The translations under genes were made by a program, and so were the position numbers. Shown here piece by piece: positions 1 through 1,245 of a DNA stretch of 64,000 nt (its first letter is position 1; each line of letters begins with the position of its first letter). The notes below the pieces were generated by a model. That model was not told the DNA's origin, made no database searches, and saw only the letters and a list, made by a program, of their open reading frames with translations. This DNA comes from Alphaproteobacteria bacterium (GTDB lineage: Bacteria > Pseudomonadota > Alphaproteobacteria > Bin95). The stretch is from NCBI GenBank assembly GCA_963665325.3, contig OZ224045.1, positions 1,920,001-1,984,000 of the forward strand, in the 5' to 3' direction.

Positions 1-611
1 ATCCGCCGGTGCCGGAACGATGCCAGGCGCTGCGGGTCGCGTTCGCCGTCGACGATCGCCCGCAGGATCTTCATGCCGGTCTGCCCCGTGATGTCGGCGA
101 TCGCCGAGTCCAGCCGGACATTCATCTCGGTCAGCGCCTTCTGCATGTGCTGCACGCAGCGCGAGCGGTCTTCAGTCAGGCGCTTCATCTGGCGCACATA
201 GGAGCGAAGCGGGCAGACCGCATCGCCAGGACGGAAGGCGCCCCGCAGCAACCCGTAGGACAGAAGCTGCCAGATCCACTGGCAATCGAGCACGTCGCTC
301 TTGCGACCGGCAATCTGCTTCGTCATCCGCGGGGGCACCAGGAGCACCTCGAAGCCGGCGCGTTCCAGCACCTCGTAGACCGGGATCCAGTAAACCGAGG
401 TCGACTCCATCGCCACCTTCGTCACGCCGCACGACGAAAGCCAGTCCGCCATCGCCCGCAGATCGCAGGTGAAGCCGCCGAACGCCCGGACCGGGTCCGA
501 AGTGCGCGCCGGATCGACGGCCACGAAGTGACGGTCCTTACCGATGTCGATCCCGGCGCAATCCGGGTTCACAACCCTCAACCGCTGCCTCTTCCCGGTC
601 TTGCGCGCCAT
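1..611 (-). CDS. IS110 family transposase/recombinase, N-terminal DEDD domain (3' end outside window)
   Basis: Missing from the ORF track (no stop in window). Manual translation from ATG 611: MARKTGKRQRLRVVNPDCAGIDIGKDRHFVAV...VAMESTSVYWIPVYEVL...GRKSDVLDCQWI, containing the GIDIG, MEST and KSDxxD motifs of IS110 DEDD recombinases. Confidence 0.95.
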   Translation of the reverse strand, partial: MARKTGKRQRLRVVNPDCAGIDIGKDRHFVAVDPARTSDPVRAFGGFTCDLRAMADWLSSCGVTKVAMESTSVYWIPVYEVLERAGFEVLLVPPRMTKQIAGRKSDVLDCQWIWQLLSYGLLRGAFRPGDAVCPLRSYVRQMKRLTEDRSRCVQHMQKALTEMNVRLDSAIADITGQTGMKILRAIVDGERDPQRLASFRHRR

Positions 612-635
612 GCTGGTCCCCATTTTGTGTGCCGG

Positions 636-795
636 TGCGGACGGGGAAGAACCACGCAACAATGCCCAATCTCTCGAACGAGGTCGCGGCGAACCGCGCC
701 ATCAGTGACAGAAGCCGATCGTGGTTCGGGCCAAGCTCATGAACGGGCGCTACATGCACACCAGTGATTCTCCGGCCTCCATTCCCCAGACCGAC
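636..795 (-). ncRNA. Putative IS110 bridge RNA
   Basis: Upstream of IS110 transposase. Outer stem 782-793 pairs with 638-648. Hairpin closed by GGCC 774-777/729-732. Second hairpin closed by perfect 8-bp inverted repeat 720-727/649-656. Both hairpins have internal loops. Confidence 0.6.
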
Positions 796-1104
796 CTCAA
801 ATCACAACACCGCCGCCAAGGCCACAAGGCCCCGTTACTTGCGCGACAGGGCCCACGCCCCGCGCGGGTGGGTGCTCATGACACTTCCGCAGGGGGTTCG
901 CTGCATGCAGGGGCCGGTCGCGGGAAGATCGGAACAAAAACGGATTGAAACGCGATGAGGGAGCGGCATTCGGGATGTGGAGAAACTGGGGTTCGGAAGG
1001 ATGGGGCTGCCGCCGCGAAATCTTCTCTCCCGCGCGCGGGCTACCGGATTCACACTTCTCCGCCCGGTGGCGTCGCATCGCATGTTCACCAACCTCACGC
1101 CCCG

Positions 1105-1203: not shown

Positions 1204-1245
1204 CATGGGAATCATGACAGACCATGACATCCCATGACACTTCCG
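1204..1245. repeat. 10-bp-phased CATGACA array
   Basis: CATGACA at 1213, 1223 and 1233, with CATG also at 1204. Last unit CATGACACTTCCG (1233-1245) is identical to 877-889. Confidence 0.8.

Follow-up and report, generated by a model that had tools for sequence, protein, structure and literature searches.

Bridge RNAs are a known and much-used mechanism. The bridge recombinase IS621 of Escherichia coli and its RNA are described by Durrant (2024, PMC11208160) and Hiraizumi (2024, PMC11208158), and the passages of the Durrant paper used here describe variation in bridge RNA structure inside each of the two groups. In the extracts used, the IS1111 group is defined by an RNA in the long right end and by subterminal inverted repeats of 7–17 bp. 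For the IS1111-type seekRNAs (ISEc11, ISKpn4, ISPa11), excerpts of Siddiquee (2024, PMC11187229) give a top-strand-first guide order in IS1111, which has its RNA downstream of the gene, and the opposite order in the IS110 type. Excerpts from the literature also show that insertion of IS110 elements into host repeats is already known for IS621, ISPpu9, and ISPpu10; the last two, IS110-family elements of Pseudomonas putida, target one conserved multicopy intergenic repeat.

The element described here lies at the left edge of a 64,000-nt stretch of alphaproteobacterial DNA, the whole of which is called the window. It resembles IS621 in its recombinase (DEDD plus serine, aligned at each of the five catalytic residues), in the placement of its RNA in a long left end opposite a short right end (263 and 16 nt, the layout of the IS110 group), and in the two predicted internal loops of this RNA, which serve the target and the donor, respectively. 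A 2-nt core shared between the guides, handshake positions, and a repeat as the natural target are further likenesses. IS621-like elements are reported to have guides for both DNA strands; here these were seen for the target only. Our best explanation, to which we give a probability of about 0.88, is that an intact IS110-family element here encodes a true bridge RNA, which reads a host repeat, and that the element belongs to a divergent clade with reversed guide order.

The Element and Its Transposase

Positions 1–876 of the window (minus strand) form the left part of an IS110-family element of ~1,658 bp (1.66 kb). It consists of a 263-nt left end (LE), a 458-aa DEDD/serine transposase gene, and a 16-nt non-coding right end (RE). 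As seen from the ORF and a whole-genome lookup, the gene starts at 611 on the minus strand and exits the window's left edge.

3..611, minus strand: transposase, first 203 of 458 codons (ORF; PF01548, PF02371; NF033542), the remainder lying left of the window

An earlier interpretation made from the letters of this DNA (the sequence-only reading) had remarked that the transposase was absent from the ORF track. This was correct; the track missed it because the ORF runs past the window edge and only 203 of its 458 aa lie inside. The domain search gave PF01548 (78 bits) and PF02371 (52.8 bits), with a DEDD_Tnp_IS110 domain in the window ORF. The NCBIfam model NF033542, ‘IS110 family RNA-guided transposase’, scored 282 bits against a cut-off of 140. 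Residues D22, E69, D106, D109, and S338 align with D11, E60, D102, D105, and S241 of IS621, the latter being named as in the excerpted text of Hiraizumi (PMC11208158). The IS621 transposase is the sole solved relative and is distant (E 1.4e-5, 27 bits). Judged by these domains and residues, the protein is predicted to be an IS110-family bridge recombinase.

Exactly two copies of the element were found in the genome (5 contigs, 5.58 Mb), with identical proteins, and the RNA covariance model gave two matches in this genome and no more. The element is an intact IS110-family insertion sequence. Four other loci (G000 C5:113658, C1:1479644, C3:1297639, and C4:1062444) code distant IS110-family proteins, with 28–32% identity along part of their length; the RNA model had no match at any of the four.

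For comparison we used 74 genome loci and 80 metagenome loci, whose transposases were 44–98% identical to that of the element. A total of 1,059 relatives were detected across two collections (507 and 552), and the best 80 of each were taken. No relative was found in the viral_contigs collection. In eight multi-copy clusters, the ends were set where the copies cease to be alike.

Element Ends and Core Dinucleotide

Both genomic copies are identical from the coding part through position 883, and their flanks differ beyond it. Each reads flank-TGTCATGAG-CACCC...CTCGAGAG-(AG)ATGTCATG, so that the boundary drawn from the two copies alone could stand anywhere inside the shared letters. In close families the right end always stops at ...TTACTC(A/G)(A/G)G-AG and the left end opens with AG-C..CCACC. 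These family-wide junctions place the AG core at 876–875 and the first element base at 874.

612..874, minus strand: left end non-coding region, 263 nt, first element base 874 (two copies identical; family-wide junctions)
875..876, minus strand: core dinucleotide AG, at both element junctions (copies and family comparison)
877..883, minus strand: left target flank TGTCATG, one host-repeat unit outside the element (copies, families, empty sites)

AG was present at both ends of both copies and of related families. The reconstructed empty site, TGTCATGAGATGTCATG (TGTCATG-AG-ATGTCATG), is found uninterrupted at three other places in the genome (chance expectation, none), and these empty sites hold a single AG. 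The same short core therefore stands at both junctions without target duplication, as in IS110 bridge recombinases. The three empty sites, each a candidate target, are at G000 C1:1745700, C3:373949, and C3:1324789.

The sequence-only reading had put the element end near 880. It was close, and the copies are indeed identical to 883; the first element base is 874, and TGTCATG at 883–877 belongs to the target. In full, that arrangement takes TGTCATG (883–877) into the element as a 7-bp repeat at both ends, with CA as the core, the loop carrying the 8-mer GCTCATGA as donor guide, and TGTCA as target guide. Identity of the copies up to 883 agrees with it, as do the TGTCATG that follows the right end in both copies and the presence of the 8-mer and 5-mer themselves. 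It conflicts with the constant stop of the right end in all close families and with the existence of uninterrupted TGTCATGAGATGTCATG sites, and it is taken up again with the guides below.

Several observations were made around the junctions. Runs of (AG)n stand straight after the right-end core at the right-end junctions of L001 (717–719) and L002 (~3160), and also at L072, L074–L079, L088, and L089; the second genomic copy has one AG more after its right end than the window copy. A scar of ~22 nt resembling the left-end start follows TGTCATGAG at G000:C1:97166 (minus strand, locus L006) and continues into unrelated DNA; the RNA model had no match at this scar. Head-to-tail tandem copies joined as RE-AG-LE made up 13 of the 26 copies with a right flank listed (cluster L037–L058, one genome, OZ253557).

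A short subterminal inverted repeat switches by clade, as AGTAAC/GTTACT, AGAAAC with GTTTCT, or CAAAC with GTTTG. In the present element, the 6-nt AGTAAC (834–839) is opposed to GTTACT at the right end (L001 723–728); 35 nt separate the left motif from the core, and 5 nt the right one.

834..839, minus strand: AGTAAC, inverted copy of right-end GTTACT (subterminal inverted repeat; changes by clade)

Structure of the Predicted Bridge RNA

The covariance model R1 placed the RNA on the minus strand of the left end, and the following parts were delimited.

637..803, minus strand: bridge RNA core as modelled, 167 nt (covariance model R1, 160 bits; no other real match in the window)
782..791, minus strand: P1 outer stem, 5' strand, pairs with 640–648 (covariation, RNAalifold)
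640..648, minus strand: P1 outer stem, 3' strand (covariation, RNAalifold)
774..777, minus strand: P2, 5' strand, closes the target arm, pairs with 729–732 (100% of cells paired, compensatory changes)
729..732, minus strand: P2, 3' strand (covariation)
745..762, minus strand: P3, target-arm terminal hairpin (covariation, RNAalifold)
721..727, minus strand: P4, 5' strand, closes the donor arm, pairs with 649–655 (all 7 pairs compensatory in alignment A3)
649..655, minus strand: P4, 3' strand (covariation)
682..700, minus strand: P5, donor-arm terminal hairpin (covariation, RNAalifold)
701..720, minus strand: conserved 5' side of the donor loop, including CUGUCAC at 711–705 (family comparison)

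When 18 family representatives were aligned, 96.3% of cells were paired and 7 pairs had changed on both sides; none of 500 shuffles scored as high, and slid controls gave 41–53% paired. Alignment A3, in which the 92 model matches were fitted to the covariance model, showed 93.8% paired cells and double changes in 26 of 30 pairs (slid controls 37–49%). RNAalifold recovered P1–P5 from the alignment unaided. The covariance model matched 72 of the 80 metagenome loci, always directly upstream of the ORF and on the same strand. A single-sequence fold of 883–612 was no better than shuffles (z −0.02; 93 of 200 shuffles folded at least as well). In Rfam there was no matching family, with three chance-level matches only (E 4–9).

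A conserved structured non-coding RNA adjoins the recombinase gene, as in IS110 bridge recombinases. From its covariation, the left end is predicted to encode a bridge RNA of ~170–190 nt on the minus strand. The RNA is modelled as a three-way junction. Two arms extend from P1: the target arm is made up of P2, an internal loop, and P3, and the donor arm of P4, a second internal loop, and P5. The fold previously drawn over 636–795, an outer stem and two hairpins with internal loops, matches this covariation-supported structure. The broader proposal that an IS110 left end codes a bridge RNA here is likewise upheld by the protein domains, the catalytic residues, the covariation of the stems, and that of the guides.

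Target Guides

Three parts of the target loop were compared with the DNA around the insertions.

736..742, minus strand: left target guide (LTG) with the sequence UCAUGAG, matching the final 5 nt of the left flank and the core AG (cluster and family comparison)
766..770, minus strand: right target guide (RTG) with the sequence GAAUC, in the target loop on its 5' side, the core G being the partner of C766 (positional pairing scan)
735..735, minus strand: handshake-like base C, identical to the base that opens the left end (in 0.88 of 58 families; permuted 0.56)

The variable LTG stretch directly follows the conserved GCACCCG of P3. This 7-mer equalled flank plus core in all 8 of the multi-copy clusters (cluster 1 matched 6–7 of 7). 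Loci L015 and L064 have near-identical RNAs, and their LTG 7-mers differ exactly as their flanks do. Among 91 RNAs, 48 different LTG 7-mers were counted. The LTG 7-mer was found within 140 nt upstream in 70 of the 91 loci, some of the misses being loci cut off by contig ends; with guides swapped between loci, the mean was 0.9 and the maximum 4. Its likeness to the left flank stops sharply at −8. In this wide set of 91 loci, the ends were placed using LTG and donor-guide matches, so identity at −3 to −6 holds by construction, and only the eight multi-copy clusters and the permutation test are independent of such placement. The families are kin to one another, so that the guide z-scores overstate independence.

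The LTG gives the 8-mer GCTCATGA a different meaning from the one first attached to it. Its two copies at 735–742 and 874–881 (plus strand) are present as had been claimed, are the sole two in the window, and match the junction. The label of donor guide has to be given up, because 874–881 consists of the last 5 nt of the flank, the AG core, and the first element base, and the loop that matches it is therefore the LTG. As a repeat, the 8-mer is no more than chance: at least two copies occurred in 71 of 100 shuffles of the window, and three other direct repeats of 7–11 nt lie within 600–900. The second match had been TGTCA at 706–710 on the minus strand, taken as a programmed target guide. TGACA does stand at 706–710; its complement sits in the CUGUCAC of the donor loop, a motif shared by 14 of the 91 relatives; between them, these 14 have 12 different target guides. 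Since CUGUCAC is kept across 12 targets, the likeness of TGTCA to the host repeat is a coincidence.

The core dinucleotide was always shared between the LTG and the left donor guide (LDG, below). Among the 91 RNAs, 72 had AG in both, 19 had AA in both, and none was mixed; AA was confined to one clade. The proposed CA core is contradicted by these counts. Taken together, the arrangement with TGTCATG inside the element is very improbable: its supposed donor guide is a 7-mer in 48 versions that tracks the varying left flank and not a conserved element end, its supposed target guide is kept in families with 12 different targets, and both guides carry AG or AA in 91 of 91 sequences. We therefore keep to the bridge RNA with the LTG at 742–736.

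All 58 non-redundant families show pairing between position 766, in the 5' part of the loop, and the second base of the core. The preceding four bases of the RTG pair with RT+1 to RT+4, which open the right flank, in 0.69, 0.67, 0.67, and 0.57 of these families (permuted 0.36–0.44), and the same scan of the 58 families gave no pairing signal between RTG positions and the donor. An exact 4-mer RTG match at one RNA position was found in 20 of 58 families and was confirmed when G-U pairs were allowed. The element's own RTG predicts ATTC to the right of the core. The copies have ATGT and AGAT, in which 2 and 1 of 4 bases pair. In the family L083–L086, none of 4 insertions matched the RTG. One loop thus appears complementary to both target strands including the core, with a weak RTG match for the element itself. 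According to an IS621 abstract, recombination can occur when a substrate matches just half of the RNA. Pairing of the 5' side of the target loop with the LTG inside the RNA was also considered; it is present in some families and absent in others, and pairing with the right flank was favoured.

New copies were observed inside the DNA that codes a resident copy's left target guide (L068 1237–3126, L044, L050). At these insertions, the left flank reads CACCCG plus the guide, and the right end is followed by the rest of the resident RNA gene. It is visible from these loci that guide-coding DNA mimics the target and is hit by new insertions, which gives nested and tandem copies.

Donor Guide

The donor loop carries on its 3' side a second 7-mer that follows the right end.

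671..677, minus strand: left donor guide (LDG) with the sequence UCGAGAG, identical to the final 5 nt of the right end followed by the core (cluster and family comparison)

The LDG tracks right-end variation, which reads CTCGAGAG here, CTCGGGAG in L015, and CTCAAGAG in most others. Of the 91 loci, 80 had this 7-mer downstream (mean 2.3 and maximum 6 when permuted). A670, the next base after the LDG, equals the first base of the right flank; this holds in 0.48 of 58 families against 0.30 permuted.

No consistent position was found for a right donor guide by positional pairing, by exact k-mer histograms, or by a G-U-tolerant scan of the whole left end, and the donor half of the model is incomplete for this reason. 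Small peaks of the right-donor-guide scan on a conserved P3 strand were judged to be chance. The right side of the donor is conserved within clades and is followed by a hairpin and the 6-nt inverted copy AGTAAC; its recognition by the protein is possible. Left-end DNA at 841–854 is similar, when both are read in one direction, to 705–717 on the conserved 5' flank of the donor loop (CGGCTnnGTCGC vs CGGCUUCUGUCAC in close families). This likeness of left-end +20 to +33 to the donor loop was dropped, as the longest common substring of 4.95 vs 4.64 ± 0.12 permuted (top 4.98) was not significant.

The lack of a detectable right donor guide and the clade-specific inverted repeat that flanks the donor would suit a shorter active species. 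This would be a seekRNA-like RNA of about the target arm alone (70–100 nt), with the donor arm active only in a longer precursor or the donor read mostly by the protein and the subterminal inverted repeat. Excerpts of Siddiquee (PMC11187229) report that 70–100-nt seekRNAs suffice and are more abundant than the 145–170-nt forms. We consider this unlikely for the present clade: the donor arm is conserved and supported by covariation as well as the target arm is, 80 of 91 loci have a donor-arm 7-mer that tracks the right end, and the X2 RNA contig spans both arms. An RNA of both arms remains the preferred reading.

Host Repeat and Expression

TGTCATG has 710 copies in the genome against 308 expected, and 220 of them form 82 clusters, mostly at 10-nt spacing. 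Both element copies lie inside TGTCATG arrays, and so does the 98%-identical L016 of another assembly, which has the same target guide. An unoccupied array lies nearby in the window.

1213..1239, plus strand: host array free of the element, three CATGACA units with a 10-nt spacing (sequence; without an AG core in the right place)

The host TGTCATG repeat had already been named as the target, and this part holds: both copies are flanked by TGTCATG, and the LTG reads it. On this sequence evidence, the natural target here appears to be one unit of a host TGTCATG array.

Expression was examined by comparing four RNA-library runs with positions 1–1300 of the window, as assembled contigs, which show neither the strand nor the true ends of an RNA. 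Two runs of one metatranscriptome study gave contigs at 648–828 (word depth 138, ending in adapter at 828) and 667–883 (depth 64), with a word depth of 20–22 over the coding part. These contigs were 96–97% like the window, with 6–12 differences, none of them inside the three guides. Runs X3 and X4 covered the coding part only, at low depth. These contigs give a weak hint of a transcript of the RNA region, with DNA carry-over possible. A scan of 560–960 for sigma-70-like promoters and terminators found none. A promoter guess at ~827–799 was dropped, as it conflicts with the contig that ends in adapter at 828.

The position directly upstream of the start codon, and the lower-depth contigs that extend from the leader into the coding part, would also fit a structure that is no more than the 5' leader of the transposase mRNA, with a role in the control of its translation or stability, and with the junction matches as by-products of insertion into repeats. 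We regard this as scarcely credible. A leader gives no reason for loop segments that co-vary with the left flank and the right end or share the core dinucleotide, nor for a third segment complementary to the right flank, and the NF033542 family model is named for an RNA-guided transposase.

Comparison with Known Systems

Several differences from IS621 were noted. The protein has 458 aa, compared with 328 aa in the IS621 PDB chain. The top-strand guide precedes the bottom-strand guide along the RNA, opposite to IS621: the order here is RTG (770–766), LTG (742–736), and then the LDG, which is the bottom-strand donor guide. Bottom-strand guides are 7 nt long and the top-strand guide is ~5 nt. The core AG is the reverse complement of the CT of IS621, and both arms share a common outer stem.

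With the IS1111-type seekRNA elements in the excerpts of Siddiquee (PMC11187229), the subterminal inverted repeat is a common feature. The RNA lies in the left end, upstream of the gene, and the inverted repeat is only ~6 nt, which sets the element apart from the IS1111 group. From its sequences, the clade appears to join an upstream RNA location to the IS1111 guide order. The host repeat consists of TGTCATG units at 10-nt spacing, whereas that of ISPpu10 and ISPpu9 is REP.

Read on the opposite DNA strand, the core would be CT (TT in one clade), and the order and handshakes would be as in IS621. If this reading holds, the gene cassette would be inverted relative to the strand-exchange chemistry. 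A description of such a layout was not found in the literature consulted, in which the figure of Durrant with the six examples ISPpu10, ISAar29, ISHne5, ISCARN28, ISAzs32, and ISPa11 was represented by its legend and the passages of a 2026 review contained nothing on guide order. We offer only tentatively, as a suggestion that is more doubtful than the main reading, that the clade has a third, undescribed bridge RNA layout. It would combine a left-end RNA, IS1111 order, a common outer stem, one-base handshakes at the bottom-strand guides, and a donor right side without a detectable RNA guide.

Proposed Mechanism and Significance

UCAUGAG (742–736) has the sequence of the left target flank plus AG and would therefore pair with the bottom strand there. 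GAAUC (770–766) would pair with the top strand at the core G and up to 4 nt rightward. UCGAGAG (677–671), on the 3' side of the donor loop, copies the right end plus core, and the base after each bottom-strand 7-mer matches the first base of the other DNA's right side in a one-base ‘handshake’. The transposase–RNA complex may then join the circularised element (RE-AG-LE) to a target ...TCATG-AG-AT..., with strands exchanged at AG. The expected product would be flank-AG-LE...RE-AG-flank without duplication.

For annotation of the host genome, the element is an ordinary IS. With one scaffold throughout, the clade supplies 48 target guides that nature has reprogrammed, as well as 18 donor guides. 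The missing right donor guide is relevant to ‘half-match’ recombination and to off-target insertion, as is the weak match on the right of the target. The clade also breaks the reported link between RNA-gene location and guide order, and could for this reason help to reveal what is essential in the IS621 plan.
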